Assembly (NCBI GenBank): GCA_028873525.1
Contig: JAGWIM010000001.1
Coordinates: forward strand, 2,068 to 66,067
Source of the DNA: Pseudomonadota bacterium
GTDB taxonomy: Bacteria > Pseudomonadota > Alphaproteobacteria > Rickettsiales > SXRF01
Length of the DNA stretch: 64,000 bases
Direction of reading: 5' to 3'
Part shown: positions 4,407 through 44,276 of the stretch, one piece after another
Layout: every line of letters begins with the position of its first letter
How positions within the stretch are numbered: the first letter of the stretch is position 1
Program-made: the position numbers and the translations under genes
Notes under the pieces: generated by a model
Databases searched by the model: none
What the model saw: the letters and a program-made list of their open reading frames with translations, nothing else
Told to the model about the DNA's origin: nothing

Positions 4407-4532
4407 TTATATTCCTGAATTGAACTTTACCAGCTTTTTCCAATCAATCGCGCCTGATTGGAAATAAAATTTCTCGAGCGTTTCCTTAGTAAATCGATTG
4501 ATAAGATTAGAATATAATCGCGCTTCACTCAT
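4407..4532 (-). CDS. candidate 41-aa small ORF exactly filling the pyrB-pyrC gap
   Basis: Hand translation gives [41 protein letters not shown]. Its ATG overlaps the pyrB TGA (ATGA) and its TAA abuts the pyrC ATG (TAAATG). The segment is AT-rich. It is below the ORF-track length cut-off. Confidence 0.3.
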
Positions 4533-5488
4533 GTCCTTCCTCCCGCCAGCAACTCCAGCACCGCCTGCCGCACGGCGACGCCCATCTCCACCTGCTGCAG
4601 AATCAGGCTGCGGCCAAGGTCATCAGCCAGCCTGGAGTCAATTTCGACGCCACGGTTGATAGGCCCCGGATGCATGATCAGCGCATCCGGTTTGGCGTAA
4701 GAGAGTTTTTCCTCGTCCAGCCCCCAGAAGTGGAAATATTCGCGCATGGACGGCACGAAATTACGCTCCATGCGCTCCATCTGCAACCGCAGCATCATAA
4801 TAATATCGCAATCCTTAAGCCCCTTTCGCATGTCGTGAAACACTTTCGCGCCGAACGATTCGGCGTGCGGCGGCATCAGCGTCGTCGGCCCGATGACGCG
4901 CACTCTTGCGCCCAGCAGATTCAGCAGTTTCATGTTCGAGCGCGCGACGCGCGAGTGCAGAATATCGCCGCAAATGGCCACCGTCAGCCCCTCGATTTTT
5001 TTCTTGTGCTGCAAAATGGTCAGCGCATCGAGAAGCGCCTGCGTCGGATGCTCGTGGCAGCCGTCACCGCCGTTGATGACCGAACAGTTGACCTTCTGCG
5101 CCAGCAGATGCACCGCCCCTGATTCCGGGTGGCGCACCGAGATGAAATCCGGGTGCATGGCGTTGAGCGTCATCGCCGTGTCAATCAGCGTCTCGCCTTT
5201 TTTGGTCGAGGAATTCGACACCGACATGTTGATGACATCCGCGCCGAGGCGCTTGCCCGCCAGTTCGAAGCTGGTGCGCGTGCGTGTGGAATTCTCAAAA
5301 AACAGATTGATAAGCGTGCGCCCTTTGAGGATGGCGTGTTTTTTGTCGGGCTGGCGGTTTTTGGCGATATAGATTCCGGCGAGGTCGAGAACGGCATAGA
5401 CATCGCTGCGCGAAAGCCCGTCGATGCCCAGCAGGTGCCGGTGAGGGAAGGGCTTGGCGGCGGAAGCGGCTTTCATCAAGATAGACAT
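4529..5488 (-). CDS. pyrB: aspartate carbamoyltransferase catalytic subunit
   Basis: ATCase motifs are present ([25 protein letters not shown]). The tracked ORF extends to 5578, but the ATG at 5488 (MSILMKAAS) gives the usual length. Confidence 0.9.
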
Positions 5489-5983
5489 ATATACCGATAA
5501 TGTGCGTTCAGGCAATGCTTGTTGCAAAATGTATATCGTGCAACGTTCGCCATGTATCAAAGCTGGAAACCATCTCAAGCCATTAACAAGGCTATATCGA
5601 CGGAACTTACTTATTCATCACTGCCGGTAATATTGATAAGGTAGACTGTTATTATTCAATCATTATCCTGTACCGCCACTGAGGCCGGCGCAACAAAAAT
5701 GCCTCGAGTCCATACCCATGCCGTGAGCAATGATATAATCTTCCGTGGGGTTAAGAGAGAAAAACCGCTTGATTTCCTGTTATTTACGGGTAAAAATGCG
5801 CGCCTATTTCACTTATAGCACGGCATCCGGCAGCGCGGAGGCTGGAGAATTGCCGTTGTGGCGCAACTGTTTAACCCGAAACGCCGCTGACGTTTCATAA
5901 CGAGTAAGCGGCGGTCAGCGGCCAGCGGTCAGGTAATAAACTGGTCGCTGCCAACTGGCCGCCGGCGACTAAAGAAAGCATTT

Positions 5984-7714
5984 ATGGCTCAGGCAGCACA
6001 GGCAATGAATATGGAAGTGGAAGATTTTGGCGCGTTATTCGAGGAATCCGTCAAAACATCGGGCAAGAACGAAGGTTCGGTCATCACGGGCACGGTGATT
6101 TCCGTGGAAAAGGATACCGTCATCATTGATGTCGGCCTGAAATCGGAAGGCCGCGTTCCTCTGCGCGAATTCCAGGTCGGCAATACCACACCGGAACTGC
6201 GCGCCGGCGATGAAGTCGAAGTGTTCCTGGAGCGCATCGAAAACAAGCATGGCGAAGCGGTCTTAAGCCGCGAAAAAGCGCTGCGCGAGGAAGCCTGGAC
6301 AAAGCTGGAAAAAGCCTGCGCCGACGCCACCCGCGTCGAAGGCGTGATTTTTGGCCGCGTCAAGGGCGGCTTTACCGTGGATATTCAGGGCGCCGTGGCG
6401 TTCCTGCCCGGCTCACAGGTGGACATCCGCCCGATCCGCGATGTCGGCCCGCTGATGCACATCCCGCAGCCGTTCCAGATTCTGAAGATGGACCGGAAGC
6501 GCGGCAATATTGTCGTCTCGCGCCGCGCCGTGCTGGAAGAATCGCGCAGCGAACAGCGCGAGCAACTGCTGGGCAAGATAGCCGAGGGGCAGATACTGGA
6601 CGGCATGGTCAAGAATATCACCGATTACGGCGCGTTCATCGATATGGGCGGCATCGACGGGCTGCTGCACGTCACCGATATTTCCTGGCGGCGCATCGCC
6701 CATCCTTCCGAAGTGCTGCATGTCGGCCAGACCGTGCGCGTGATGGTCACCAAGTTCGACCCGGCCACCAAGCGCGTCAGCCTCGGCATCAAGCAGCTCG
6801 AGGAAAACCCGTGGCAGGGCGCCGATGTCAAATACCCGAATGGCGCCAGGCTGCGCGGCAAAATCACCAATATCACCGATTACGGCGCGTTCGTCGAACT
6901 GGAGCCTGGCATCGAAGGGCTGGTGCACGTATCGGAAATCTCGTGGGTCAAGAAGAGCGCACACCCGTCGAAGCTGGTGTCGGTCAGCCAGGAAGTCAAT
7001 GTCGTGGTACTCGACATTGATGCGTCCAAGCACCGCATTTCCCTGGGCATGAAACAGTGCGAGGACAACCCCTGGGCGGCATACGCCGGCAAAGTCCATG
7101 CCGGCGACACCATTGAAGGCGAAATCCGCAACATCACCGATTTCGGCCTGTTCATCGGGCTGGATGGGGATATTGACGGCCTCATCCACCATTCCGATTT
7201 GAGCTGGAACGAACCTGGCGACGTTGCCATCAAGAATTACAAGAAGGGCGACCGCGTCAAGGCGAAAATACTGGCCATTGACGTGGACAAAGAGCGCGTG
7301 TCTCTCGGCGTCAAGCAGTTGGAGAACGACCCGTTCGAGGCCGAATTCGGCGAAATCCAGAAGGGGGCGACCCTCACCTGCACCGTCACCGAAGTGCAGG
7401 GCGACGGTATCAGCGTTAAGGTCAGCGAGCATATTCAGAGCTTTATCAAGAAGTCCGACCTGGCGCGCGACCGGCAGGACCAGCGCCCCGACCGCTTCGC
7501 CGTCGGCGACCGCGTGGACGTGAAAGTCACCGCGGTGGACAAGACGACGCGCAAGGTCGGCGTTTCCATCAAGGCGCTGGAGGCCGACGAGCACAAGAAA
7601 GCCATCGCCGAATACGGCTCAACCGACAGCGGCGCTTCGCTTGGAGACATCCTGGGCGCGGCGCTGGATGAAGCAAAAACAGAAAAAACGACGAAGAAGA
7701 CGAAAAAGAGCTAG
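5984..7714 (+). CDS. rpsA: 30S ribosomal protein S1
   Basis: 576-aa ORF with six S1 repeats (recurrent ITDYGAFV/DGLLHVSEISW blocks). Ends in TAG at 7712-7714. Confidence 0.95.
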   Translation: MAQAAQAMNMEVEDFGALFEESVKTSGKNEGSVITGTVISVEKDTVIIDVGLKSEGRVPLREFQVGNTTPELRAGDEVEVFLERIENKHGEAVLSREKALREEAWTKLEKACADATRVEGVIFGRVKGGFTVDIQGAVAFLPGSQVDIRPIRDVGPLMHIPQPFQILKMDRKRGNIVVSRRAVLEESRSEQREQLLGKIAEGQILDGMVKNITDYGAFIDMGGIDGLLHVTDISWRRIAHPSEVLHVGQTVRVMVTKFDPATKRVSLGIKQLEENPWQGADVKYPNGARLRGKITNITDYGAFVELEPGIEGLVHVSEISWVKKSAHPSKLVSVSQEVNVVVLDIDASKHRISLGMKQCEDNPWAAYAGKVHAGDTIEGEIRNITDFGLFIGLDGDIDGLIHHSDLSWNEPGDVAIKNYKKGDRVKAKILAIDVDKERVSLGVKQLENDPFEAEFGEIQKGATLTCTVTEVQGDGISVKVSEHIQSFIKKSDLARDRQDQRPDRFAVGDRVDVKVTAVDKTTRKVGVSIKALEADEHKKAIAEYGSTDSGASLGDILGAALDEAKTEKTTKKTKKS

Positions 7715-7721
7715 AGTCGTA

Positions 7722-7964
7722 ATGGAAATAAAGATTGATGTGGATTCCATCCGTGCGTTCGGCTCGGTGGCGCGCGGCGACGCGGGACCGGACAGCGACG
7801 TGGATTTACTGGTGCGCACGCTGCCGGGTTGCGGATTATTCAGAATAGGCGGATTCTATGTGGGATTGGAAGATTTATTGCGCCATAAGGTAGACATCGT
7901 CACGGAAGACAGCATCAGCCCCTATCTGGAATCATCTATTCTTGCTTCCGCCACGCCACTATGA
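7722..7964 (+). CDS. MntA-type nucleotidyltransferase antitoxin
   Basis: 80 aa from the ATG at 7722. Minimal nucleotidyltransferase motif GSVARGDAGPDSDVDLLV (GSx10DxD). Sits directly upstream of a HepT-like ORF. Confidence 0.75.
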   Translation: MEIKIDVDSIRAFGSVARGDAGPDSDVDLLVRTLPGCGLFRIGGFYVGLEDLLRHKVDIVTEDSISPYLESSILASATPL

Positions 7965-8000
7965 AACCGCACCATTCCGACCGCGCAAGGCTCCTGACAT

Positions 8001-8303
8001 ATGCGCGATGCTACCAGACTGATTTTTTCCTATCTGGAAGAAGACCCCGGCCGAGGCTCCCGCACTCGTGACGCAATCATCCGGCAACTGGAGGTTATCG
8101 GCGAAGCATGCAATCATATCGCTCCCCAAATACAAAAGCGCTATCCTCAGATACCGTGGCGTGAAACCGTCGCCATGCGCCACCATTTATCGCATGGCTA
8201 TTTCCAGGTAAAAATAAAGGACGTATGGGAGACAATGGATAATGATCTTCAGCCATTGCAGGAAGCAGTTCTTTCCATGCTGAACGATCCATCAATATTG
8301 TAA
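8001..8303 (+). CDS. HepT-like (DUF86) RNase toxin
   Basis: 100-aa ORF. Rx4HxY motif present as RHHLSHGY. Paired with the upstream MNT gene. Short N-terminus for the family. Confidence 0.75.
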   Translation: MRDATRLIFSYLEEDPGRGSRTRDAIIRQLEVIGEACNHIAPQIQKRYPQIPWRETVAMRHHLSHGYFQVKIKDVWETMDNDLQPLQEAVLSMLNDPSIL

Positions 8304-8325
8304 TCTACACTGCTAAATCAACCCA

Positions 8326-8354
8326 TTGACTTCACATATCTGTTCTGTATTAAT
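8326..8354 (+). promoter_or_regulatory. putative sigma70-type promoter of sppA
   Basis: TTGACT (8326-8331), 16-nt spacer, TATTAA(T) (8348-8354), about 28 nt upstream of the sppA ATG. Pattern match only. Confidence 0.3.
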
Positions 8355-8381
8355 GCCGACGTTCCAATTGCCATTGAATCC

Positions 8382-9299
8382 ATGTCCCTCAACGCTGACA
8401 CCCTTCTCGACCGTCTCTATCTGAAAACCCAGATCACGCGCTGGCGGGTGCTGGCCGTGCTGTTCGCGGTGATTGCCGGGGTGGTCGCCGTGTACCGCTT
8501 TTCGCCCTATTCACCCATCGAAGCGCCTTATGTGGCGCGCCTGTCTTTCGACGGCATCATCGACGACGACCAGAAAACCTACGACCTTATTGACAGCCTG
8601 GGCGACAACGGCAAAGTCAAAGCCGTCATCGTCTGGCTGGACACGCCGGGCGGCAGCGCCGTCGGCGGCGAGGAAACCTTCCTGCGCCTGCGCCAACTTG
8701 CGGAAAAGAAGCCGGTGGTAGCGGTTGAGCGCTCGGTGGCGGCGTCGGCGGGCTACATGGTGGCGCTCGGCGCCGACCGGATTTACGCGCGGCCGGGCAC
8801 CATTACCGGATCCATCGGCGTTCTCATCGAGACGGCGGAGATAACAGACCTGGCCGAAAAACTCGGCATTAAGCCTATTATCATCAAATCCTCGCCGCTG
8901 AAGGCCATGCCATCGCCGTTCGAAAAGGATACGCCGGAGTCCGACACGGTCATCAAGACGGTCATCATGGATTTTTATAACCGCTTCGTCGATATCGTCG
9001 CCGAGCGGCGGCATCTTCCGCGCGACACCGTGCTGAAGCTGGCCGACGGTCGGGTTTACAGCGGCCAGGCGGCGGTGGAGGACAAGCTGGTCGACGCCAT
9101 CGGCGGAGAAAAGGAAGCCATGGACTGGCTGGTCGAAAAACGGCATATCCGCCAGGGACTCGACATCAGGGACGTCGATCCGGAGCAGGAAACCAGCCTG
9201 CTCGACCGGCTGACCCAGAGCATCGCCGGAAATTTTTTCAACAGAAGCAGTGTAACGCTTGACGGGCTGGTTGCGGTGTGGCATCCTCGCCTCCATTAA
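8382..9299 (+). CDS. sppA: signal peptide peptidase SppA (36K type)
   Basis: 305-aa ORF with an N-terminal TM helix and ClpP/crotonase-like blocks (VVWLDTPGGS, SAGYMVALGADRIYA, TGSIGV). Confidence 0.85.
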   Translation: MSLNADTLLDRLYLKTQITRWRVLAVLFAVIAGVVAVYRFSPYSPIEAPYVARLSFDGIIDDDQKTYDLIDSLGDNGKVKAVIVWLDTPGGSAVGGEETFLRLRQLAEKKPVVAVERSVAASAGYMVALGADRIYARPGTITGSIGVLIETAEITDLAEKLGIKPIIIKSSPLKAMPSPFEKDTPESDTVIKTVIMDFYNRFVDIVAERRHLPRDTVLKLADGRVYSGQAAVEDKLVDAIGGEKEAMDWLVEKRHIRQGLDIRDVDPEQETSLLDRLTQSIAGNFFNRSSVTLDGLVAVWHPRLH

Positions 9300-9324
9300 T
9301 CGCTTTAACATCAAGGGCATGTCT

Positions 9325-9621
9325 ATGACCAAATCTGAACTCGTTCTGCGCCTCTCGAAAAAGTATCCGCATCTCTATCAGCGCGACATCGAAGCGCTGG
9401 TCGCCACCATCTTCGACGACATCTCGGAAACGCTGGTCGACGGCGGCCGCGTTGAGCTTCGCGGCTTCGGCGCTTTCTCCATCAGAAAGCGGGAGGCGCG
9501 CAAGGCGCGCAACCCGAAGAACGGGCAGGAAGTGCATATCGGCGCGCGCTTCGCCATCTATTTCCGCACCGGCAAGGAATTGCGCGAACGCATCAACAAA
9601 GCGCCGGTGATGACAAGGTAA
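9325..9621 (+). CDS. ihfB: integration host factor subunit beta
   Basis: MTKSELVLRLSKK...RGFGAFS...NPKNGQEV...GKELRERIN is collinear with IhfB. AAGGG lies 7 nt upstream of the ATG at 9325. An alternative ATG is at 9319. Confidence 0.85.
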   Translation: MTKSELVLRLSKKYPHLYQRDIEALVATIFDDISETLVDGGRVELRGFGAFSIRKREARKARNPKNGQEVHIGARFAIYFRTGKELRERINKAPVMTR

Positions 9622-9715
9622 CTGTTAGTTATTGGTTGCCGGTTGTTAATCGCTGGTTGTTGGTAATTCCGAACTGACAGCTAACGGCTGACAACTAAAT
9701 AACTGGCAACGTGCT

Positions 9716-10033
9716 ATGCTCCGCTTCTTCAAATTTTTTGCCGCGCTCCTGATTGCCGTTGCCTTTGCCGGGTTCGCCGCTGCCAACCGCGGCATGGTTT
9801 CCCTGCGTTTTTTTCCCCTGCCCTACGCCGTGGATATGCCGCAGTTTCTGCTGGCGCTGCTGTGCTTTGCGCTGGGCGCGGCAGCAGGAAGGCTGGCGCT
9901 GGGACTCAGCCTGCACCGCGCCAGGCGGCTGATCAGGCTGGAGCGGCAGCGTGTGGAAGCGCTGGAGCATGAATTGGCGCTGTTGCGCCAGAAGAAACAG
10001 GCCGCCATGCCCGCGATACCGGCGCAATCATGA
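9716..10033 (+). CDS. LapA-domain (DUF1049-like) inner-membrane protein
   Basis: 105 aa, two TM helices and then a coiled basic tail (RLERQRVEALEHELALLRQ). It occupies the ihfB-lapA-trpF position seen in alphaproteobacteria. Confidence 0.6.
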   Translation: MLRFFKFFAALLIAVAFAGFAAANRGMVSLRFFPLPYAVDMPQFLLALLCFALGAAAGRLALGLSLHRARRLIRLERQRVEALEHELALLRQKKQAAMPAIPAQS

Positions 10034-10719: not shown

Positions 10720-11918
10720 AGATAAGCAACACGCAGCCTGATTCCCACGGCCATTTCGGCACTTACGGCGGCCGGTATGTCGCCGAAACGCTGATGCCGC
10801 TCGTCCTCGAAGTCGAGCGCGCATATAACGCGGCGAAAAACGATCCGGAATTCAAGCGCGGGCTGGATTATTATTTTGAGCATTACATCGGCCGCCCGTC
10901 GCCGCTGTATTTTGCCGAGCGGCTGACGAAACACTGCGGCGGCGCCAGGATTTATTTCAAGCGCGACGAGTTGAACCACACCGGCGCGCATAAAATTAAC
11001 AATTGCATCGGCCAGGGGTTGCTGGCCAGACGCCTCGGCAAAAAGCGCATCATCGCCGAAACCGGCGCCGGGCAGCACGGCGTCGCCACCGCCACGGTCT
11101 GCGCGCTGTTCGGGTTGGAATGCATTATTTATATGGGCGCGAAAGACATCGAACGGCAGGCGCCGAACGTGTTTCGCATGAAGCTGCTCGGCGCAAAGGT
11201 CGTGCCGGTCACGTCCGGCAGCAAGACGCTGAAAGACGCGATGAACGAGGCGTTGCGCGACTGGGTGAGCAACGTCGCCACCACCTATTACCTCATCGGC
11301 ACCGCCGCCGGGCCGCACCCCTATCCGGAAATGGTGCGTGATTTCCAGTCCGCCATTGGCAGGGAAACGCGCGAGCAATTGCATAAGGCCGAGGGCAGGC
11401 TGCCCGATACGCTGGTCGCCTGCATCGGCGGCGGCAGCAACGCCATCGGTCTGTTCCACCCGTTCCTGAGCGAGCCGGAGGTGAAGATGATCGGCGTCGA
11501 GGCGGCAGGGCGCGGGCTGGATTCCGGCCAACATGCGGCGTCAATCGCGCGCGGCCAGCCCGGCGTGCTGCATGGCGCGCGCAGCTATCTGTTGCAGACC
11601 GACGATGGCCAGGTGCAGGACGCGCATTCAATTTCCGCCGGGCTGGATTATCCCGGCATCGGCCCGGAACATTCCTGGCTGCATGACACCGGCCGCGTGG
11701 AGTATGTCTCCGCCACCGATGACGAAGCGCTGGCGGCGTTCCAGACCGTTTCAAAACTGGAGGGAATTATTCCGGCGCTGGAACCGGCGCACGCGCTGGC
11801 GCATGTCTTAAAATTCGCGCCGCCGCTTCCCAAAAATCATTTGCTGGTGGTAAACGTCTGCGGCCGCGGCGATAAGGATATTTTCACCGTGGCCAAAGCG
11901 CTGGGGGTGGAGTTGTGA
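10716..11918 (+). CDS. trpB: tryptophan synthase beta chain
   Basis: 400-aa ORF with the PLP-lysine block (HTGAHKINN) and GGGSNAIG. 4-nt overlap with trpF. Confidence 0.95.
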
Positions 11919-12298
11919 TAAAAGATTTTACAAAATGGCATAAAATAAAAACCCTGCTTGAGGGCAAGCAGAAACTTCCTATCTATCAAACCCGCGAAAT
12001 ATGGTGGTGCAGCCTAGGCGCAAATATCGGTCATGAACAGGATGGAAAAAGCGGATTCTATCTTCGGCCAGTGCTTGTCATACGCAAATTCAATCCGCAT
12101 ATCTTCTTTGGGGTGCCACTTACCACGCGGATAAAAGAAAATCCTTATTATCATCGCATTCACTTCAGAGGAAAAGAACAGTGCGTTATGCTCTCGCAAT
12201 TGCGATTGTGGGACAGCAAACGCCTTTCCCAGAAAATGGGAAAATTGCCGGAAGACCAATTTGAGGAAATAAGAAATGCTTTGAAAGGCTTAATGTAA
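11915..12298 (+). CDS. PemK/MazF-like toxin-fold protein, no obvious antitoxin
   Basis: 127 aa. [33 protein letters not shown] and [14 protein letters not shown] resemble the MazF/PemK SH3-like core. The GTG start overlaps the trpB TGA (GTGA). Clearly AT-richer than trpB and trpA. Confidence 0.6.
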
Positions 12299-12299
12299 T

Positions 12300-12319
12300 C
12301 AGCCCCCTTTCGGGGGCTG
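12300..12319 (+). terminator. GC-rich hairpin after the MazF-like ORF
   Basis: CAGCCCCC-TTTC-GGGGGCTG, a perfect 8-bp stem starting 2 nt after the stop. No U-tract follows, so terminator function is uncertain. Confidence 0.4.
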
Positions 12320-12399
12320 CATATGCCTAACGGCAATTTGTGGTTTCATTGTAAGGTAGTTTATGCTGAAAGTCAAATTATTCCAGAAGGAGTAAGTTT

Positions 12400-12567
12400 A
12401 TGAAATTACCACTGCTTACCTATATCCTCTATTTGCTTGGCTTAGGTGTTTTTATGTCGACTATGAAGGAAGGTAACTCGACTGTACAAATGTATGAGAT
12501 GTTGTTTGCTTTCGGCTGTTGGCATACTGGTCGTTTAATCAAAAGGCGTTCTAAAGCAATGAAATAG
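12400..12567 (+). CDS. candidate 55-aa small membrane protein
   Basis: AAGGAG lies 7 nt upstream of the ATG. Translation [21 protein letters not shown]...[17 protein letters not shown] has one hydrophobic helix and a basic tail. AT-rich. Ends 8 nt before the trpA ATG. Confidence 0.3.
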
Positions 12568-18424: not shown

Positions 18425-19027
18425 TTATATTTCCCTGGCGTGCGGCTTGTTGCCGCGATTATCTAAAATTGCATTTTCACTCATGGCGACTTCAATGGGC
18501 AAAAACATTGTGTCAAGCGCCTTGACCAAGGTAGCAATATTCCTCTTTCCTGACTCCCCTTCGGTGAGCGTATCAAGACGTAGCTGGCGTAACTCATCTG
18601 CCACAAATATGGCTGATATTCCGCTCACGAATAACATGGTGGGTGGCGCAACGTCTTTCAAGGCATCCATAATTCCCTCCGTTTTTGCTTTATTATCACG
18701 CATTCTGTTTCCCAGCCTCGCTGTTACGCCCCTAAAGCCAACGACGGTTGCTGCTAACGCAGCCGCGTTTATAAGCCAGTAGCGGCGATTAATCCTGGAT
18801 TTTCCGAAAACTTCAGCCAATGATTCTTTTTCGTTGTTATCCAGTCCTATGGTGGGGGAGCCATTCATAATGGCCCTGCGTATTTTATCCCAGAACTTCT
18901 CGAATGCATCAAAGCCATGTTTTTCAATGTGAATAGTGATAAAGCGCTTGCCAGAACTATCAGGCATGTTCCGCACATATTCGCAGAATATGTCCTGATT
19001 ACGCTTTTCTTCTTCGCCGGCGCTCAC
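18425..19027 (-). CDS. hypothetical membrane-associated protein inserted between dnaA and dnaN
   Basis: 200-aa ORF, AT-richer than its flanks. The GTG start overlaps the dnaA TGA (GTGA); an alternative ATG is at 18967. Two hydrophobic segments ([30 protein letters not shown]). No motif recognised. Confidence 0.5.
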
Positions 19028-25830: not shown

Positions 25831-26145
25831 ATGAAAATCAGACCGTTAGGTGATCGCCTCGTCGTCGAGCGCATTGAACAGGATACCAAAACCGCCGGCG
25901 GCATCATCATCCCCGATACCGCCAAGGAAAAGCCCAAGTAGGGCAAGGTCATCGCTGTCGGATCAGGCAAAAAAGATAAGGACGGCAAGCGCTTACCGAT
26001 TGACGTCGAAGTCGGCGACATCGTGCTGTTCACGCAATGGGCCGGCAACGAAGTCAAGATTGAGGGCACGGAATACCTGATTTTACAGGAAGAAAACGTG
26101 CTCGGCATTGTCGAGAGCGGCCATTCCAAGAGGAAAGCTGCCTGA
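25831..26145 (+). pseudogene. groES: co-chaperonin GroES with an in-frame TAG at codon 37 (25939-25941)
   Basis: RBS TAGGAG, then [94 protein letters not shown]. GroES-like on both sides of the stop, all in one frame. Confidence 0.85.
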
Positions 26146-26260: not shown

Positions 26261-27922
26261 ATGTCAGCCAAAGAATTACGCTACGGTTCGGACGCGCGCG
26301 AGCAGATCATCATCGGCGCGGAAAAACTTGCCCGCGCCGTGAAAGCAACGCTGGGGCCGCGCGGCCGCAACGTCGTCATCGAGAAATCTTTCGGCGCGCC
26401 GCGCATAACCAAGGACGGTGTCTCGGTCGCCAAGGAAATCACGCTGGCCAACAAGTTCCAGAACATGGGCGCGCAGATGCTGCGCGAGGTCGCCAGTAAG
26501 TCGTCTGACTTAGCGGGTGACGGCACGACCACGGCCACGGTGCTGGCGCAAGCCATCTTCACCGAAGGCAGCAAGGCGGTAGCCGCCGGACTCAACCCGA
26601 TGGACCTGAAGCGCGGCATTGAAAAAGCCGTCGAAGCCGTCGTCGAGGAAATCAGGAAGAAAAGCAAGACTGTAAGCTCGAAGGCCGAATGGGCGCAGGT
26701 GGCGACCATTTCCGCCAACGGCGACAAGGAAGTCGGCCAGAAAATCGCCGAGGCGATGGAAAAAGTCGGCAAGGAAGGCGTCATCACGGTGGAAGAGGCC
26801 AAAGGCCTTGAGTTCGAGCTGGATACCGTCGAAGGAATGCAGTTCGATCGCGGTTATCTTTCCCCCTATTTCGTCACCAACGCCGAAAAAATGGTGGTCG
26901 AGCTGGAGAATCCCTATATCCTGATTTTTGAGAAGAAATTGTCGGGATTACAGCCGATGCTGCCGCTGCTTGAAGCGGTGGTGCAGCAACAGCGCCCGCT
27001 GCTCATCATCGCGGAGGACGTTGAAGGCGAAGCGCTGGCCACTCTCGTCGTCAACAAGCTGCGCGGCGGGCTGAAAGTGGCCGCCGTGAAAGCGCCGGGC
27101 TTCGGCGACCGCCGCAAGGCCATGCTCGATGACATCGCCATCTTAACCGCCGGCGAAGTCATCAGCGAAGACCTCGGCATCAAGCTGGAAAGCGTCACGG
27201 TCAAGAGCCTTGGCCGCGCCAAGAAGATCGTCATCGACAAGGACAACACCACCATCGTTGACGGCGCCGGAAAGAAAGACGACATCGGCGCGCGCTGCAA
27301 GCAGCTTCGCGCGCAGATTGAGGAAACCACCTCGGACTATGACCGTGAGAAGCTGCAGGAACGCCTGGCCAAGCTGGCCGGCGGCGTTGCCGTGCTGAAG
27401 GTCGGCGGATCGTCGGAAATCGAGGTGAAGGAGCGCAAGGATCGTGTTGACGACGCCCTGCATGCCACCCGCGCTGCGGTTGAAGAAGGCATCGTGCCGG
27501 GCGGCGGCTCTACGCTGCTTTACTGCTCGCGCCTTCTCGAGAAAATCCGCTGTGAGAACGACGACCAGAAAGCCGGCGTCGCCATTGTCAAGCGCGCGCT
27601 GCAGGCGCCGCTGCGGCAGATTGTCGAGAATGCGGGCTTAGACGGCGCGGTGGTCGCCGGCAAGCTGCTGGAATCCGCCGATACCAGCTTCGGTTTCGAC
27701 GCGCAGAAACTCGAATACTGCGACCTGATCAAGGCCGGCATCATCGACCCGACAAAGGTTGTGCGCACGGCGTTGCAGGGCGCGGCTTCGGTCGCCTCTC
27801 TCCTCATCACCACGGAAGCCATCATCGCCGATGTTCCGGACGATAAAAAGTCCGGCGGCGGCAGCGGCGGCGGCATGGGTGGAATGGGCGGCATGGGCGG
27901 CATGGGGGACATGGATTTCTAG
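26261..27922 (+). CDS. groEL: chaperonin GroEL
   Basis: 553-aa ORF with [12 protein letters not shown] and a C-terminal [14 protein letters not shown] tail. Ends in TAG. Confidence 0.97.
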
Positions 27923-35598: not shown

Positions 35599-35675
35599 TG
35601 GCGCACCCGGAGCGACTCGAACGCCCGACCCTCAGATTCGTAGTCTGATGCTCTATCCAACTGAGCTACGGGTGC
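35599..35675 (-). tRNA. tRNA-Arg (anticodon ACG)
   Basis: The reverse complement folds as a cloverleaf: acceptor GCACCCG/CGGGTGC, anticodon stem TCAGA/TCTGA with loop CTACGAA, T-arm GTTCGAGTC, encoded CCA. 77 nt. Confidence 0.9.
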
Positions 35676-36441: not shown

Positions 36442-36471
36442 GGCGGTTTTCCTTACGAATGAGGCGCTTTT

Positions 36472-38385: not shown

Positions 38386-39200
38386 CAGAACGATCTCCAC
38401 AGCGCGAATAACACGCCGCTGCCGGTGCCGGTGTTTTTTCCCGCCACGTCATCGAAGCCGCCGAACTGGAACGACAGGTCGTTTTGCCAGCGGTACACCG
38501 CCGAGAGCTGGAGCCGCACAAGATCGTAATCGTTGGCCGGCGAATTGGTGAAATCGGCCACATGGGACGCCACCGTGCGCCAGGTCATGAAGGCTTGCGG
38601 CATGACCATCCATCTCGGAGCGACGCCGATGCCGAGCGTACCATTCAGCCTCGCCTGGTCGTGCGGCGCGCCGAAGCGGTGACGGTACTGCGTATCGAGG
38701 TTGGCGAAATGGCTGAGTCCCCAGGCCGAAAAACCATACCCCGCCGACAAGCCAAGCCCGGCATCTGGCGACGACCCGCCCAGCGGCGGCTGCGCGTCCG
38801 AGGGTTCGGGGCTGGGCAGCTTGATCATCGGTTCGGCGGAGACGACAAAGCCGTTTTGCTGCCACAGGCGCGTACGCAGGAAAAATTCGCTGTCGCCAAG
38901 ATTCCAGTTGGTGTGTGACGGGCCGCCCGCCGCGCCATCCTGATGCGCACGGTCGAAGAGCAGGTTGGCGCCGAGGGTAAGGCTGTCGCTAAGTCCATAC
39001 TCCAAATAAGGATTGAGTTCGTATTTGCCGTAATCCGGCTGCGATTGCTTACGGCCCGCGTTATCGAAGTAGCCACCGGCGTTATAAGTGCTGGCGGTGA
39101 TGATGAATAACCCGTTGCCCGCGGCTTGTGTCCACGCGCCGGCCATGGCATCGCAGCTACCCAGGGCAAGAATACATGCGATAGGCGTTACGAAGCGCAT
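38385..39200 (-). CDS. putative outer-membrane beta-barrel protein
   Basis: 271 aa with a signal peptide (MRFVTPIACILALGSCDAMA), alternating amphipathic strands rich in aromatic and Gly residues, and a C-terminal ...LFALWRSF ending in Phe. Confidence 0.55.
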   Translation of the reverse strand: MRFVTPIACILALGSCDAMAGAWTQAAGNGLFIITASTYNAGGYFDNAGRKQSQPDYGKYELNPYLEYGLSDSLTLGANLLFDRAHQDGAAGGPSHTNWNLGDSEFFLRTRLWQQNGFVVSAEPMIKLPSPEPSDAQPPLGGSSPDAGLGLSAGYGFSAWGLSHFANLDTQYRHRFGAPHDQARLNGTLGIGVAPRWMVMPQAFMTWRTVASHVADFTNSPANDYDLVRLQLSAVYRWQNDLSFQFGGFDDVAGKNTGTGSGVLFALWRSF

Positions 39201-39274
39201 ATTTTCCCTCTACGCGGGAGACTGTAGCGAACCGGGGTGGTTGTTTCAAGCGGGGGTGGGTAAAACAGCAAGCC

Positions 39275-40069
39275 TTATTCCAGCCCTTTTAGTTCCAGCA
39301 TCACCTGGTCATCCGTCAAATCCAGCGTGAGCGGCGTGACGGTGACGTAGCCTTCCTGCAGCAAATCGATGTCGGTTCCCGGCGCGTCGGCGCAATCTTC
39401 GCGCTCGCCGCCGATCCAGAAATAGGGGCGCCCCTTGGGGTCGATGCGCCCGGTCAGCCGCACGCTGACCAGCCGCTTGCCCTGGCGGCAGACGCGCACG
39501 CCCTTCACCTCCTCCGGCGGACATTCAGGGAAATTGACGTTGATAACCACGTCCCCCGGCCAGCCGGTCTTTATCAGCTTTTTAATCAGCGGCGGCGCAT
39601 GGCGCTGCGCTGTCCGCCAGTGCATCTTGCCGTTATCGGCGCCGAGCAGGCTGAGGGCGATGGATGGCACGCCGAGTATCGCCCCTTCCATCGCCGCCGC
39701 CACCGTACCCGAATAGGTCACGTCGTCGCCGACATTCGACCCGCGGTTGACGCCGGAGAGGATTAAATGGACGTGGTTCGCGGTTCGAGTCGAGAGTCGC
39801 GTAAGGTTGGTCGCGCGACTCGTACTTGGTATAATCTCCTTCAACCCCAGCAGCACGCAATCGGTCGGCGTGCCGGAGACGGCGAAGCGCCGCGGCGCGA
39901 TTTTCCGCGCGCGCACCGGCAGGTGCAGCGTCAGCGAATGGCTGGCGCCGCTTTGCTCAACCTCCGGCGCCACCACCCACACGTCTTTGGAAAGCGCGCG
40001 GGCGATGTTCTCCAGCACCTTGAGGCCCGGCGCGTGGATGCCGTCGTCGTTGGTAACGAGGATTCTCAT
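39275..40069 (-). CDS. surE: 5'/3'-nucleotidase SurE
   Basis: MRILVTNDDGIHAPG...SGVNRGSNVGDDVTYSGTVAAAMEG. The tracked ORF adds 10 residues (MDPRLRGDDN) read from a palindromic repeat. About 16 extra aa lie before the SGVNRG block. Confidence 0.85.
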   Translation of the reverse strand: MRILVTNDDGIHAPGLKVLENIARALSKDVWVVAPEVEQSGASHSLTLHLPVRARKIAPRRFAVSGTPTDCVLLGLKEIIPSTSRATNLTRLSTRTANHVHLILSGVNRGSNVGDDVTYSGTVAAAMEGAILGVPSIALSLLGADNGKMHWRTAQRHAPPLIKKLIKTGWPGDVVINVNFPECPPEEVKGVRVCRQGKRLVSVRLTGRIDPKGRPYFWIGGEREDCADAPGTDIDLLQEGYVTVTPLTLDLTDDQVMLELKGLE

Positions 40070-40072
40070 GTT

Positions 40073-40097
40073 GTCATCCCCGCGAAGGCGGGGATCC
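40073..40097. repeat. half-element of the GTCATCCCCGCGAAGGCGGGGATCC palindromic family
   Basis: gtcatccccgcgaaggcggggatcc between serS and surE. Confidence 0.6.
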
Positions 40098-40115
40098 ATG
40101 TCCCAGCAAACACAA

Positions 40116-41399
40116 TCATCCGATACTCTTCAATCCGCCCATATAGGGAACTAAAGCATCGGGTATCGCTATCGTACCATTTTCTTGCTGATAATTCTCC
40201 AGTATCGCCACCATCGTGCGGCCAATCGGCAGGCCGGAGCCGTTCAGCGTATGCACGAATTCGTTGCCCCCTTTATTATTTTTCTGGCCGCCCTTGGGCT
40301 TGAACCGCGCCTTCATGCGCCGCGCCTGGAACGCGCCGCAGTTGGAGCAGCTCGAAATCTCGCGGTACGCCCCCTGCCCCGGCAGCCAGACTTCGATGTC
40401 GCAGGTTTTTTCCGCCGAAAATCCCATATCGCCGGTGCATAGCAGCATGACGCGGTAATGCAGCCCGAGTTTTTTAAGAATCGCCTCGGCGCAGGCTGTC
40501 ATCCGTTCATGCTCTTCCTTCGATTTATCGGGGTGGGTGATGGACACCATCTCGACCTTGGAAAACTGGTGCTGGCGAATCATGCCGCGCGTATCCTTGC
40601 CCGCCGCGCCTGCCTCCGAGCGGAAACACGGCGTATAGGCGGTAAACCGCAGCGGCAGTTTTTCCTCATCGAGGATTGAATCGGCGACGAGGTTGGTAAG
40701 AGGAACTTCAGCGGTGGGGATGAGCCAATATCCATCGGTGGTTTTGAATAAATCCTCGCCGAATTTAGGCAATTGCCCCGTGCCATAGACGGCATTGTCG
40801 CGCACCAGAAACGGTGGCACAATTTCAGTATAACCGGCTTGCGTATTCATATCCAAAAAGAAACTCGCCAGCGCCCGTTCCATCCGCGCCAACGCACCTT
40901 TCAAGACAACAAATCGCGAGCCGGAGATTTTCGCCGCCGACTCAAAATCCATCAACCCCAGCGCTTCGCCGAGATCAAAATGTTCCTTGGGTTTGAAAGA
41001 AAGTTCCGGCTTTTTGCCCCACTCGCGTATTTGCTTATTATCCTTCTCACTCTCACCTTCGGGCACATCCTCGGCGGGGATGTTGGGGAGCTTTTCCAAC
41101 AACTCTTCTGCTCCACCTACACCCTCAAAAGCCGCATTTTGTGCAAATTCATCAAGTTCTTTTTTGATATAAGCAGCTTCTTGCAAAGTCGACGTGATAT
41201 CCTCACCTTTGGCTTTAGCCATACCAATTCGCTTTGCAATGGCATTATGCTTGGCTTGCAATTCCTGAAAAGACGTTTGCAAGTGCCGGTCTTCCGCATC
41301 TAGTTCCAAAATTTCTTTTGATTGCGGCTCCAGCCCGCGCTTTTCCATCGCGGCATCGAACGCCTCCGGGTTGGCGCGGATAAATTTTATATCGTGCAT
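40116..41399 (-). CDS. serS: serine--tRNA ligase
   Basis: 427-aa ORF with an N-terminal coiled-coil arm and class II motifs ([15 protein letters not shown]). Confidence 0.95.
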
Positions 41400-41402
41400 A
41401 AT

Positions 41403-41849
41403 TTACTCGCCGCGTGAAACAATATCGGGTCCGCCGGATTCAAGCGCCGCAATGAACGCGCCCCGAACGCGGTAGAAAAAACGTTTCGGCAATCGCCCAT
41501 AGACAATAGTTTCCGCATCGCCTCCTGCCGCCATGCGCAAATCCGGCCCCGGCCAGGTAAAGCGATTGGCTTCCGTCAGCATAACCCATGAGCGCATATC
41601 ATCAAGACCAAGCCGGCGTTTCATATCGGCGGGAATTTCCATCGCCGATTCAGCCTGCGAAAGCGAAGGCGGCGTATGCGTAATCGGCAGTACGGTGACA
41701 ATGTCTTTTCCTTCTTCATTTTTGACCAACAGTACAATGGCGCACGGGCGATCCTTCACGCCCTCTTCCTGCCCGCGCTCATGCTCGGCATTCCACAAGT
41801 AGAAATAGCGGATGACGTACGCTTCTTGCGGTTGCGGGAACAAAATCAC
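41403..41849 (-). CDS. putative toxin partner of the Phd/YefM antitoxin (MazF/PemK-fold-like)
   Basis: 148 aa. 4-nt overlap with the upstream antitoxin ORF. YFYLWNAEHERGQEEGVKDRPCAIVLLV resembles the MazF-type ...RPAVVL strand. Family assignment is uncertain. Confidence 0.5.
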   Translation of the reverse strand: MILFPQPQEAYVIRYFYLWNAEHERGQEEGVKDRPCAIVLLVKNEEGKDIVTVLPITHTPPSLSQAESAMEIPADMKRRLGLDDMRSWVMLTEANRFTWPGPDLRMAAGGDAETIVYGRLPKRFFYRVRGAFIAALESGGPDIVSRGE

Positions 41850-42103
41850 TCACCCCATTCATGGTCGAGACCTTCCGCCTCGAGAGCCGCTTGCGCTTTC
41901 TTCAAATCCTCAATATCCTTCTCGGTGAAATCGGCCGGCGTCATCACCTGCCGGTCGCGGCGCTTAAGGCGCTGGTATTCTTCCGTTGACATAAACACAA
42001 TGCGCCCGCGGCCGTTTTTGGTCATCGTCACCGGCTCGACCAGCGCCTTATCCGTATAAAGACCAAAATTACGCTGAAATTCTACTGAAGATACGGTTTC
42101 CAT
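41846..42103 (-). CDS. Phd/YefM-family antitoxin
   Basis: 85 aa. The N-terminus METVSSVEFQRNFGLYTDKALVEPVTMTKNGRGRIVFMSTEEYQRL matches the Phd/YefM pattern. RBS GGAGG. Confidence 0.7.
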   Translation of the reverse strand: METVSSVEFQRNFGLYTDKALVEPVTMTKNGRGRIVFMSTEEYQRLKRRDRQVMTPADFTEKDIEDLKKAQAALEAEGLDHEWGE

Positions 42104-42117
42104 AATTCCTCCATAAG

Positions 42118-42149
42118 CTATGTATTATACATAGTATACGTATACTATG
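42118..42149. promoter_or_regulatory. overlapping palindromes: candidate operator/promoter of the Phd-toxin operon
   Basis: Perfect 20-bp palindrome CATAGTATACGTATACTATG (42130-42149) overlapping the 17-bp palindrome CTATGTATTATACATAG (42118-42134). They lie 15-46 nt upstream of the antitoxin ATG and overlap the tatC stop. Confidence 0.5.
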
Positions 42150-42906
42150 TAGGTATGTCAACAGGCTTTCCCATATTCCTGCACACGAAAATCGATATTT
42201 CATACAACAGGTACAGCGGAACCGAAAGCGCAATCTGGCTGAAAATGTCCGGCGGGGTAATGAAAGCGGCTATGGTAACGATAATCACCACCGCATAGCG
42301 CCGCCCGCGCTTCAGCGTCTCCAGCGACAGAATACCCGCCCGCACCAGCAGCACCAGCACCACCGGCAATTGGAACGACAGGCCGAAAGCGATAATCAGG
42401 TGCATGGCGATGTTGAGGTAATCGCCGACGCGCGCCTCCAGTTGAATGGGCAGCGCGCCGAGGATGGCCGGACTTTCAAAACTCAGGAAAAACCGCCACG
42501 CCGCCGGAAAAATCACGTAATAAGCAAACGCCGCGCCGCCGATAAACAACAGCGGCGAAGCAACAAGATAGGGGATGAACGCCCGCCGCTCGCGCTGGTA
42601 AAGCCCAGGCGCAAGGAATCGGTAAAGCTGCATTGCGATCACCGGAAACGACAGCATAAATCCGCCAAACACCGCCAGTTTCAGGTAAGCGAGAAAAGGC
42701 TCGGTCAGGCTGGTATAAATCAGCCGCCGGTGCTCAGGATTAGGGAACGCTTCGGCCAGCGGCCGCACGAGAATGGCGTAAATATCGCCCGCCACCAGGT
42801 AACATAAAACCGTCGCTGCGAGAAACGCCAGCAGGCAGACAACCAGGCGGCGGCGCAGCTCAATCAGGTGGTCGATGATGGGTTGCCGGGGGAGGTCGAT
42901 GGTCAT
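42145..42906 (-). CDS. tatC: twin-arginine translocase subunit TatC
   Basis: 253 aa with six TM helices. HLIELRRRL N-terminus and a TPPD block. Confidence 0.9.
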   Translation of the reverse strand: MTIDLPRQPIIDHLIELRRRLVVCLLAFLAATVLCYLVAGDIYAILVRPLAEAFPNPEHRRLIYTSLTEPFLAYLKLAVFGGFMLSFPVIAMQLYRFLAPGLYQRERRAFIPYLVASPLLFIGGAAFAYYVIFPAAWRFFLSFESPAILGALPIQLEARVGDYLNIAMHLIIAFGLSFQLPVVLVLLVRAGILSLETLKRGRRYAVVIIVTIAAFITPPDIFSQIALSVPLYLLYEISIFVCRNMGKPVDIPT

Positions 42907-42944
42907 GGGGCAAAGATAACATACTGATTAAATTATCAAACGGC

Positions 42945-42964
42945 AATTGTCATTAAATTGTCAT
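42945..42964. promoter_or_regulatory. tandem direct repeat AATTGTCAT-TA-AATTGTCAT (11-bp phase)
   Basis: Lies in the divergent region between the tatC start (42906) and the 43044 ORF. The reverse complement, TGACAATT x2, matches the core of 60961-60982. Confidence 0.35.
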
Positions 42965-43043
42965 ACGCGAATCTCTAATATTCGTGCTATCGTATAAGAC
43001 AGTGTTATTATTTAATTTCTAGCCCAAATAAGGGGTGCTTGTC

Positions 43044-43511
43044 ATGCCATTCAGAAACGGCAAAATTGCAGGTGTGCTCAATAACAGTGATTCAAGCACC
43101 AATGAGATGAGTTATGTCGATATGCACGACCTGCATCCTGATAACGTGCAGGCTGCGCAGGTGCATGGCGCAGTAGATGGTGCTATGTCAGGCGCAACGT
43201 TAGCAGCCATACCAGCAGCACTGATGTCGTTTGGAACCGAAACTGTAATTGAGGAAGGAGCCGAGCATCTTCACTTCAACCTCAAAAATGGGAAGATTGG
43301 TGCTGCAATTATTGCATTAGGTGCTGTTGTAATGGGCGCAGTTCGTTCGTTTACTGCCAAGAAAGAAGCTGAAACCCATAACGCATGGTCTGAGCGTGTC
43401 TTATCGCGCATGGAACAGCGGGAAGCAGTTGAGGCTGAGGCTAAACATGCCGCCGCTGTTATAACTCAGCGTGAACAAGCTGCACAGGGTACGCAGCAAG
43501 CAGGTAAATAA
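43044..43511 (+). CDS. hypothetical Gly/Ala-zipper membrane protein
   Basis: 155 aa from the ATG at 43044 (AAGGGG 8 nt upstream); the tracked GTG is at 43035. AT-richer than its flanks. Has GAVDGAMSGATLAAIPAALMSFG and IGAAIIALGAVVMGAV segments and an Ala/Glu/Gln-rich tail. Confidence 0.4.
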   Translation: MPFRNGKIAGVLNNSDSSTNEMSYVDMHDLHPDNVQAAQVHGAVDGAMSGATLAAIPAALMSFGTETVIEEGAEHLHFNLKNGKIGAAIIALGAVVMGAVRSFTAKKEAETHNAWSERVLSRMEQREAVEAEAKHAAAVITQREQAAQGTQQAGK

Positions 43512-43535
43512 CCAACAAGAGATGCAAACATTTAA

Positions 43536-44268
43536 GGGTCAAGACTACTTGAGCGGGTTATTACGGAGTAATGATAACAGTATTTTATAGATGTTGTCAT
43601 TACGATGATTATAGCGGAACTCGGTTTCTTTAAGATGCAGGTAGAAGGTTGATTTCGCCATACCCCTGAACTTTGCAAGTCGTACTTTTGCGATACCCCA
43701 GAAGCCTTCAATGCCATTGACATGAGTGTGCCCTCTGGCGAATTCATCCTTGCCGTGATCGACCCGGAAGTGGCCGTAGCCAATGTCTACCAAGCCGTTA
43801 TATCCTCTCCAGCCGTCCGAGTTGACAACGGACTCCGCCGCCACCTTTCCTCGGATAATGGCTTGCAGCGTTGATTTGGAGCAATCCGGCACGATCTCGG
43901 TGTACACATGGCCGTTGCGTTCGTAGATGCCAAACACCGTGGTTTTGCCGTAAGCGCCTCGGCCACGCTTGCCCTTCACCCGGCGAGCACCGAACCATGA
44001 TTCGTCCACTTCCACCGTGCCGCTGAATGGAAATTGTTCCTCGCAATAGGCGGCAATGTGCTCACGAATGCCTTGCAGATACCGATTCACCGTGTTGCGA
44101 TTCAGCCCCGTCAGATAGGCAATTTGCGTTGCCATCAGGTCAGCCGAAAACAGCTTAACCAACATCCGAAATTGCTTCTCTGAAATGCGGGAACGAAATT
44201 TATACTTGCTCTTCTGCGCCATCACTAGCTTGTAGCATACTTCCTATATGCTCAAGTAGTCTTGACCC
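43536..44268 (-). mobile_element. IS1595-family insertion sequence (733 bp), apparently intact
   Basis: Perfect 19-bp terminal inverted repeats GGGTCAAGACTACTTGAGC (43536-43554 and 44250-44268). 8-bp direct target duplication ACATTTAA (43528-43535 and 44269-44276). Single transposase ORF. Confidence 0.85.
43545..44225 (-). CDS. IS1595-family (ISXO2-like) DDE transposase
   Basis: 226 aa. VEVDESWFGARRVKGKRGRGAYGKTTVFGIYERNGHVYTEIVPDCS...DGWRGYNGL...HVNGIEGFWGIAKVRLAKFRG is characteristic. An ATG is at 44222. Confidence 0.85.
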   Translation of the reverse strand: MMAQKSKYKFRSRISEKQFRMLVKLFSADLMATQIAYLTGLNRNTVNRYLQGIREHIAAYCEEQFPFSGTVEVDESWFGARRVKGKRGRGAYGKTTVFGIYERNGHVYTEIVPDCSKSTLQAIIRGKVAAESVVNSDGWRGYNGLVDIGYGHFRVDHGKDEFARGHTHVNGIEGFWGIAKVRLAKFRGMAKSTFYLHLKETEFRYNHRNDNIYKILLSLLRNNPLK

Positions 44269-44276
44269 ACATTTAA

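Follow-up and report, generated by a model that had tools for sequence, protein, structure and literature searches.

The window analysed here is the whole 64-kb stretch of contig JAGWIM010000001.1, with G+C content of 57.8%, on which accessory open reading frames (ORFs) and an insertion sequence are wedged between core genes. The gene order is (pyrF)-insert-pyrC-J1-pyrB, rpsA-J2-sppA-ihfB-lapA-trpF-trpB-J3-trpA, gyrB-recF-dnaN-J4-dnaA-rpsT and surE-serS-J6-tatC-J5-tatB-tatA, with J1 to J6 standing for the six insert-bearing junctions of the original prediction. All six were found where they had been placed, codon overlaps included. The list was incomplete, as the pyrC|pyrF junction of the same kind had been missed and carries a seventh wedge. 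The flanking core genes and the annotated inserts were confirmed by Pfam. Among species representatives, a "Rickettsiales bacterium" genome with TrpB identity of 83% is the nearest, and loci of the genomes compared are designated below by L numbers.

Codon statistics were trained on 38 core genes of the window. Their G+C content is 0.602 ± 0.026, the G+C content at third codon positions (GC3) 0.741 ± 0.055, and the codon adaptation index (CAI) 0.69 ± 0.06. The respective values of the ten insert ORFs are 0.34-0.55, 0.36-0.61, and 0.34-0.62 (Mann-Whitney p about 1e-6 for each of the three, with 8e-7 for GC3), and the G+C z-score of every insert ORF is -1.9 or lower relative to core genes. The insert ORFs are compositionally distinct and foreign by all three measures, and the claim that they are AT-richer than their flanks is now backed by computed values. 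GC3 of the flanking core genes is normal up to the junctions, except in serS (5′ half) and pyrF (3′ half). AT-richness is also seen in ordinary intergenic spacers of this genome, with G+C content of 0.27-0.43, and 4-nucleotide (nt) overlaps are frequent among native gene pairs in the window.

The inserts are missing from the nearest relatives at all six junctions. No wedge ORF of the window was seen at the same junction in any relative compared, and the same ORFs are not conserved at these places across alphaproteobacteria. Since the junctions are clean in the nearest relatives, the inserts can be taken as derived at all six. At least three of them split genes that overlapped ancestrally.

The insert at tatC|serS (J6) looks like a complete and intact Phd/PemK-like pair of plasmid type, equipped with a promoter and an operator of its own. 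The Phd/YefM antitoxin of 85 amino acids (aa) is encoded at 41846..42103 on the minus strand with a GGAGG ribosome-binding site. It was recognized by Pfam with 2e-9 (PF02604, 37.4 bits against a cut-off of 29.8) and by TIGR01552 (21.6 against a cut-off of 20.8), and it is 46% identical to Phd of a Methylocystis plasmid. The 148-aa PemK-like toxin follows at 41403..41849 on the same strand, with its GTG overlapping the phd TGA (GTGA). Its Pfam PemK score of 19.8 bits is below the cut-off of 23.1, and one plasmid homolog is annotated as PemK-like. A sequence search of the toxin in PDB gave nothing useful, and its AlphaFold2 (AF2) single-sequence model has a predicted local distance difference test (pLDDT) value of 51, with meaningless Foldseek matches. 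A homolog of the toxin is present in about 500 alphaproteobacterial plasmid records, most of them typed conjugative, with identity up to about 54%. In the one context read, the Methylocystis plasmid pair adjoins parA and has the same 4-nt overlap. The bicistronic antitoxin-toxin layout is preceded by a predicted promoter and palindromic operator of its own (42104..42161, minus strand). The sigma-70-like promoter TTGACA-17-TATACT matches 11 of 12 positions and is overlapped by a 12+12 palindrome (TACATAGTATAC/GTATACTATGTA). Its -35 box sits in new last codons of tatC, and approximately the last eight TatC residues are replaced (GKPVDIPT versus KKEEANA). The stop of the toxin gene is 3 nt ahead of the serS ATG, not 4 nt as had been given.

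Relatives used for the tat and serS comparison have TatC identity of 79-82%. In L161, tatC and serS overlap by 8 nt and serS and surE by 4 nt; the tatC|serS spacer in L160 is 6 nt. The serS gene of the window (40116-41399, minus strand) has GC3 of 0.28-0.62 in approximately 250 codons of its 5′ part versus 0.72-0.84 in the 3′ part, and the GC3 profile along serS is flat in the relatives. This suggests that the 5′ half of serS came in by recombination, as one imported tract with the toxin-antitoxin pair.

At tatB|tatC (J5), both the IS1595 element and the 155-aa ORF of the original prediction are present, with the ORF on the strand opposite to the tat genes. The ORF, designated orf158 (true start MPFRNGK, 155 aa; 43044..43511, plus strand), encodes a putative membrane protein of a small family, and is antisense to the tat genes. 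A homolog elsewhere adjoins a YafQ/ParE toxin. The IS1595-family element is located just past the tatB stop (43528..44276, minus strand). It is 733 bp long (43536-44268); its 18-bp inverted repeats GGGTCAAGACTACTTGAG are perfect, and the target duplication TTAAATGT is 8 bp. Its transposase of 226 aa is intact (Pfam DDE_Tnp_IS1595, 102 bits; NCBIfam NF033547, 163.5 against a cut-off of 75). The junction was built in two steps, the membrane ORF first and IS1595 afterwards. tatB and tatC overlap by 11 nt in L161, L162, and L163, no tatB was called in L160, and the TatB tail in the window is altered relative to the relatives. Two 21-nt direct repeats (ATTAAATTATCAAACGGCAAT and ATTAAATTGTCATACGCGAAT), 25 nt apart, were also identified at 42927-42972 in the AT-rich spacer between orf158 and tatC, and may represent a regulatory site for divergent promoters.

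The junction trpB|trpA (J3) is occupied as described before, by a MazF-like ORF whose GTG overlaps the trpB TGA and by a 55-codon hydrophobic ORF. The MazF/PemK-like toxin of 127 aa (11915..12298, plus strand, GTG at 11915) carries a clear toxin domain (Pfam PemK 3e-15, 56.8 bits against a cut-off of 23.1). The annotated proteins closest to it are encoded on plasmids of Campylobacterota, with 39% identity over residues 2-127; no viral relatives were found. The copy on the Nitratiruptor plasmid has a ribbon-helix-helix (RHH) antitoxin gene downstream. No cognate antitoxin was identified beside the gene at J3, where just a hairpin and orf55 are located. The perfect 8-bp GC-rich hairpin CAGCCCCC-TTTC-GGGGGCTG (12301..12320, plus strand) is directly past the stop of the MazF-like gene, has no T-tail, and was not called as a terminator. 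The hydrophobic orf55 of 55 aa (12400..12567, plus strand) is preceded by a strong ribosome-binding site (AGGAG) and stops 7 nt ahead of the trpA ATG, and trpA has no ribosome-binding site of its own. No family match and no homologs of orf55 were found in the searches.

In the nearest relative (L001), trpB and trpA are joined by CTATGACC, an ATGA overlap of 4 nt. The gap between the two genes is 85 nt or less in 64 of 74 alphaproteobacterial loci, and unrelated ORFs lie between them in 10 of the 74. Two Sphingomonadaceae (L042, 11219-11461, and L048, 11508-11744) have in common an ORF of approximately 78-80 aa starting MNAYNPLSS at this junction, and two Neomegalonema genomes (L067 and L077) have in common a Gly-rich ORF of approximately 120-133 aa. 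A homolog of the MazF-like gene without annotated antitoxin is also present on the Helicobacter suis plasmid pSNTW101c_2 (L159, 1501-1896), where its start and the stop of the preceding relaxase gene overlap by 4 nt, as at trpB in the window.

The pair MntA-HepT at rpsA|sppA (J2), which had been claimed as such, begins with an ATG at position 7722, the 8th nt past the rpsA stop; its MntA is truncated and its hepT frameshifted. The mntA remnant encodes 80 aa (7722..7964, plus strand; Pfam NTP_transf_2 4e-13). The protein keeps the GSx10DxD nucleotidyltransferase motif and lacks about 18-22 N-terminal residues. Its alignment with PDB 1WOT begins at chain residue 27, its match in PADLOC profiles at profile positions 19-24, and the homolog in L090 has 99 aa. 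It is not the full-length minimal nucleotidyltransferase antitoxin of a type VII system. Its score against the NCBIfam equivalog is 39.7, below the cut-off of 60, and among the insert proteins searched PADLOC matched this remnant only, to the candidate system PDC-S09. The hepT gene (7961..8303, plus strand; Pfam HepT-like 3e-20, 72.6 bits) has its ancestral ATG at 7961, overlapping the mntA TGA and out of frame with the remaining 100-aa ORF (8001-8303). The frameshift was placed near 7997 by three-frame comparison with HepT of L090. HepT retains the RNase motif RHHLSHGY (Rx4HxY); it scores 27.7 in NCBIfam, below the cut-off of 60, and a PDB sequence search gave nothing useful. J2 can be regarded as a decaying MntA/HepT pair. 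In relatives, rpsA|sppA is 80-170 nt long and has a long hairpin without toxin-antitoxin genes, and the two genes are not a coupled pair there.

At dnaA|dnaN (J4), an ORFan of 200 aa (orf200; 18425..19027, minus strand) has its GTG at 19027 overlapping the dnaA TGA, exactly as the original prediction had it. Among 5.8 billion proteins, orf200 found itself alone. No family match was obtained in profile searches, no viral relatives were found, and the AF2 model (pLDDT 51) is too poor for use. The chance of a 200-codon ORF in DNA of 47% G+C is approximately 2.5e-5 per frame, as estimated from base composition. In relatives with DnaA identity of 74-79%, dnaA|dnaN is 77 nt and about 40 nt long (L082 and L084, respectively). 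The DnaA C-terminus ...QG* is identical up to the stop in the window and in L082, and the stop codon therefore marks the start of the insert. The 67 nt between orf200 and dnaN resemble the ancestral dnaN leader with its ribosome-binding site.

The insert at pyrB|pyrC (J1) consists of orf41 (41 codons, G+C content 0.34; 4407..4532, minus strand), which fills the entire 122-nt spacer. Its start overlaps the pyrB stop (ATGA), and its TAA abuts the pyrC ATG. This agrees with the earlier description, except for AT-richness; ordinary spacers are equally AT-rich (0.27-0.43), and the J1 spacer (0.34) is therefore not compositionally special. No family match and no homologs of orf41 were found in the searches. 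The probability that such an ORF bridges pyrB to pyrC exactly is about 0.0035 (post hoc). In the relative L168, the pyrB|pyrC spacer is 13 nt. A 488-aa PMT_2-like membrane ORF with a 4-nt overlap with each neighbour is found there in L164, an unrelated 543-aa ORF in L165, and four small ORFs in L167, so that this junction is occupied in four of five lineage members. The 122-nt spacer may be a near-erased insertion. Its origin as a deletion remnant of the 488-aa ORF of L164 was rejected, as the similarity was not significant.

The seventh wedge, at pyrC|pyrF (1707..3074, plus strand), consists of two ORFs on the strand opposite to the operon and a very AT-rich leader (minimum G+C content 0.27). 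The first ORF (1916-2536) encodes a partial receiver domain, and the second (2537-3067) has no family match; their G+C content is 0.51-0.52. pyrC and pyrF are 1 nt apart in L164 and overlap in L168. The 3′ half of pyrF (969-1340, minus strand) has GC3 of 0.42-0.44 versus 0.68-0.76 in the 5′ half, and pyrF is the second core gene, after serS, with a compositionally atypical segment.

The short ORFs bear on whether the wedges are an artefact, either of chimeric joins in the metagenome assembly or of spurious ORFs called in ordinary AT-rich spacers. orf41 and orf55 are short, have no homologs and match normal spacers in composition, the DNA comes from a metagenome-assembled genome, and its groES contains an in-frame TAG. 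All the same, the artefact is highly improbable. The 6.2-kb stretch from tatA to surE, spanning J5 and J6, is 100% identical in a second public assembly, and the reading frames meet precisely on stop and start codons. The Pfam domains, plasmid homologs, and IS target duplication are real features, and an ORF as long as orf200 would hardly be expected by chance in DNA of its composition.

Recurrence of inserts at the same junctions was observed in relatives. The same core interval holds different accessory genes in different relatives at pyrB|pyrC, and likewise at trpB|trpA and in intervals of the dnaA-gyrB cluster, as is typical of hotspots. The dnaA-dnaN-recF-gyrB cluster of relatives has other wedges, including a 184-aa ORF, a ParD/ParE-like pair, and small membrane ORFs; those in L085, L086, L089, and L090 are at dnaN|recF and recF|gyrB. 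The inserts of relatives are AT-richer than their locus in every case measured, and wedge ORFs there often overlap or abut both neighbours (L164, L025, L070, and L085/L086 over the gyrB start). Such recurrence with different cargo supports permissive junctions with turnover. L085 (9660-10004) and L086 (1903-2199) were also seen to have a homologous ORF of approximately 100-114 aa with a hydrophobic stretch and the start MELTKxE, whose stop overlaps the gyrB start, and L089 and L090 have in common an ORF of approximately 145-150 aa starting at or just past the dnaN stop. Both are lineage-conserved wedges inside the replication cluster.

These shared ORFs, at dnaN|recF in L089/L090 and upstream of gyrB in L085/L086, together with the occupation of pyrB|pyrC in four of five lineage members, are what could be expected if wedge ORFs were ancestral and had been lost from the sampled relatives, their AT-richness coming from relaxed selection and not from foreign origin. 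Such a history is very improbable for the window. None of its wedge ORFs is at the same junction in relatives, and the cargo at shared junctions is unrelated. The closest known relatives of the toxin-antitoxin genes are on plasmids of other orders or phyla, orf200 is without any homolog, and the IS target duplication is intact.

No shared terminal repeats and no attachment (att)-like or attC-like sites were found among the seven inserts, which have in common chance-level 11-14-mers only. Inverted repeats with a target duplication were identified in IS1595 alone among the inserts. No integrase was identified among the window ORFs scanned, and the IS transposase is the sole recombinase. The Rfam search of the junctions gave the tRNA as the sole match and no other RNA family, and no terminators were called on the operon strand inside the junctions. 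No island is associated with the single tRNA gene of the window, tRNA-Arg (35599-35675).

A dedicated mechanism that recognises NTGA overlaps or gene boundaries and inserts promoterless ORF cassettes could nevertheless be proposed from the position of the inserts. At least three and probably five of the seven are where genes of relatives overlap or nearly abut, with essentially no free non-coding DNA, and three wedge ORFs begin in an NTGA overlap. The same junctions were hit repeatedly in relatives, the orf200 insert is a nearly bare ORF at the dnaA stop, and even the H. suis plasmid copy of the MazF-like gene begins on the stop of the gene before it. Targeted integration is still improbable. 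Apart from the lack of shared terminal repeats, attC-like or att-like sites, and any recombinase besides the IS transposase, the cargo is heterogeneous, located on both strands, and with or without its own promoter. Tails of TatC and TatB were rewritten instead of being cleanly split, and compaction in this genome normally ends in 4-nt overlaps.

The notion of a preferred niche, in which addictive modules would borrow transcription and coupling from core operons, holds in part. A permissive or retention niche fits the reuse of the same junctions by different cargo in relatives, and a preferred integration mechanism is not supported, as no repeats or attachment sites are shared among the inserts. 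Borrowed transcription is plausible at four of the seven junctions and not at the other three. As a general rule, borrowed transcription and coupling do not hold: J6 has its own promoter, the IS is autonomous, and orf158 and both pyrC|pyrF ORFs are antisense to their operon. Toxin-antitoxin-like inserts are indeed present at three junctions (J2, J3, and J6), and one of the three loci looks intact. MntA/HepT is decaying, and the MazF-like toxin is without the downstream RHH antitoxin of its plasmid relative.

As shared repeats, att sites, and recombinases are lacking and the cargo is mixed in origin, strand, and promoter, independent non-site-specific insertions are favoured. The inserts are probably independent small cassettes, acquired horizontally without site-specific entry and filtered afterwards by selection. 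The cargo would comprise the plasmid-type Phd/PemK-like pair, the decaying MntA/HepT, the orphan MazF-like toxin, ORFans and ORFs of small families, and IS1595. These would enter a very compact genome with translational coupling at its gene boundaries, by no dedicated site-specific mechanism; likely routes are illegitimate recombination or import by homologous recombination through flanking core genes. The atypical 5′ half of serS hints at the latter. The surviving subset now visible would be insertions that did not starve the downstream housekeeping gene, with selection acting against polarity.

Three arrangements would satisfy this filter. In the first, ORFs on the same strand run from the upstream stop to the downstream start or near it, and coupling would be preserved (J1, J3, and J4). 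For the wedge ORFs on the operon strand, the start overlaps the upstream stop (ATGA or GTGA), and they either run to within 0-7 nt of the next start or leave the ancestral leader intact. In the second, the promoter of the cassette itself would read into the downstream gene (J6), and in the third, a promoter-bearing spacer would be left ahead of the downstream gene (J2, J5, and pyrC|pyrF). Inserts would then decay in place by small deletions and frameshifts, presumably shielded from large deletions, which cannot remove them because their neighbours are essential. Such shielding fits the decay in place of J2 and the antitoxin-less J3.

The arrangements could also mean that the inserts were retained for regulating or serving the host operon, for example orf200 acting on replication genes, toxin-antitoxin promoters tuning serS, or orf41 and orf55 serving as translational relays. 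The exact bridging of pyrB to pyrC by orf41 (with the post hoc probability given above), the strong ribosome-binding site and position of orf55 ahead of trpA, and the predicted toxin-antitoxin promoter reading into serS are in line with recruitment. It is an improbable explanation for all that, as the ORFs are not conserved and relatives do without them, degeneration is seen in two of the three toxin-antitoxin loci, and the inserted toxin-antitoxin pairs of E. coli have no functional link to their host operons (PMC7167474). A somewhat less improbable, though still unlikely, idea is that this uncultured lineage of alphaproteobacteria, with genomes labelled "Rickettsiales" or "Pseudomonadota bacterium", is unusually permissive to operon-internal inserts, even at overlaps, and that these obey a relay rule of a same-strand ORF chain from stop to start. 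If true, the lineage would run counter to the rule of rare operon-internal insertions known from E. coli and B. subtilis, and coupling and polarity protection would be handed across foreign DNA, with orf41 and orf55 mainly as relays.

Several points weigh against independent, non-site-specific insertion followed by selection. The window covers 64 kb, from a 66.6-kb contig of a single metagenome-assembled genome (an uncultured "Pseudomonadota bacterium"). Of its 52 junctions, 40 are co-directional; the placement of all seven inserts at such junctions is not significant against this background (p=0.16), and therefore strand context alone is no evidence of preference. A stronger argument for preference is that several inserts are at junctions with zero free nucleotides. 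The native start of the MazF-like gene exactly on the trpB stop would be hard to obtain in a single random event, and its placement needs later compaction or a more specific process. Codon-position G+C content of orf200 is flat (0.50/0.40/0.50), and orf41 and orf55, which have no homologs, may not be translated. Co-transcription, translational coupling, the polarity filter, and deletion shielding are what we infer from the gene arrangement.

Inserts of this sort are known from other bacteria. Toxin-antitoxin pairs of E. coli are located in intercistronic regions of core operons, as in relA-mazEF-mazG, dinB-yafNO-yafP, and folA-ccdO157-apaH, and the host core genes form undisturbed operons in strains without the inserted pairs (PMC7167474). 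The insertion loci are plastic and accept other elements, the chromosomal copies decay, and transcription is shared with the host operon (PMC7167474). J2, J3, and J6 fit this description. Compared with E. coli, the window is much denser, with seven wedges in 64 kb, three of them toxin-antitoxin-related. Several of its wedges split genes that overlap in relatives, for which new C-terminal tails were required, and its non-toxin cargo (ORFans and IS) behaves alike.

ORFans and horizontally acquired genes can also be appended behind a native gene and use the native promoter for expression (Price, Arkin & Alm 2006, PMC1480536), and dnaA-orf200 at J4 and trpB with the MazF-like gene at J3 look alike. 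Insertions inside pre-existing operons were reported to be much rarer than additions at their ends (PMC1480536), whereas most events in the window are operon-internal. Hotspots of horizontal transfer were described between core genes, some of them without mobile-element genes and tied to flanking homologous recombination (PMC5635113), to which the atypical 5′ half of serS in the window can be compared. Such small hotspots and phage "morons" likewise represent AT-rich extra genes between genes adjacent in relatives, and the hotspots have different cargo in the same interval per genome (PMC5635113), as in the lineage of the window. Morons typically carry their own promoter and terminator, but a recognisable promoter was found in J6 only and no terminators were found in the window.

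The closest counterparts of J6 are Phd/YefM-PemK-like stability modules on plasmids of Alphaproteobacteria, such as the one of Methylocystis iwaonis plasmid pSS37A-Re-6, homologous in both genes, with 46% and about 50% identity, respectively. As in J6, its antitoxin gene comes first, the two genes overlap by 4 nt, and a TATAAT-like -10 box lies within a palindrome. J6 differs from the plasmid module in being chromosomal, between tatC and serS, and in having a toxin below the Pfam PemK cut-off. The window does not resemble integron cassettes or another site-specific cassette system, as there are no shared repeats in the seven inserts and no integrase in the scanned ORFs.

The phenomenon is already documented; the window does not represent a system of a new kind but is a real and unusually dense new instance. 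It stands out by how many of its events are operon-internal and by the overlapping genes that were split. How ORFans and chromosomal toxin-antitoxin modules become integrated into genomes is described as still unelucidated (PMC7167474), and the locus offers a compact natural series for its study, with fresh (IS1595 and the J6 pair), decaying (mntA, hepT, and the orphan toxin), and possibly near-erased (orf41 spacer) members. The ancestral state of the junctions can be reconstructed to the nucleotide from relatives, and the same junctions are reused across the lineage. Overlapping junctions of essential genes (tatB/tatC/serS and trpB/trpA) can be split if gene ends are rebuilt. Should the same density be found across the genome, the textbook view of operon interiors as refractory to gene gain would have to be qualified.

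Three other features of the window were noticed. GroES normally has a conserved Gln where groES of the window (25831-26145, plus strand), located upstream of groEL (26261-27922), has an in-frame TAG at about 25939-25941 (CAG to TAG, in the context ...EKPK*GKVIAVG). The TAG could be an assembly consensus error, a sign of a pseudogene, or a read-through codon. Two ORFs of 962 and 426 aa at 51617-55719 (plus strand) have hydrophobic N-terminal stretches, no Pfam match, and a somewhat low G+C content of 0.54-0.55. They are flanked by an iscA/erpA-like gene and a GT2 glycosyltransferase, and recall the PMT_2-like wedge of L164. Finally, the region 61012-62836 encodes a 579-aa ORF with GC3 of 0.51, which weakly matches the HC2 family of histone H1-like proteins. 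An ORF with Ala/Ser repeats overlaps it on the opposite strand, and a low-GC stretch is present in the region at 61851-62400.

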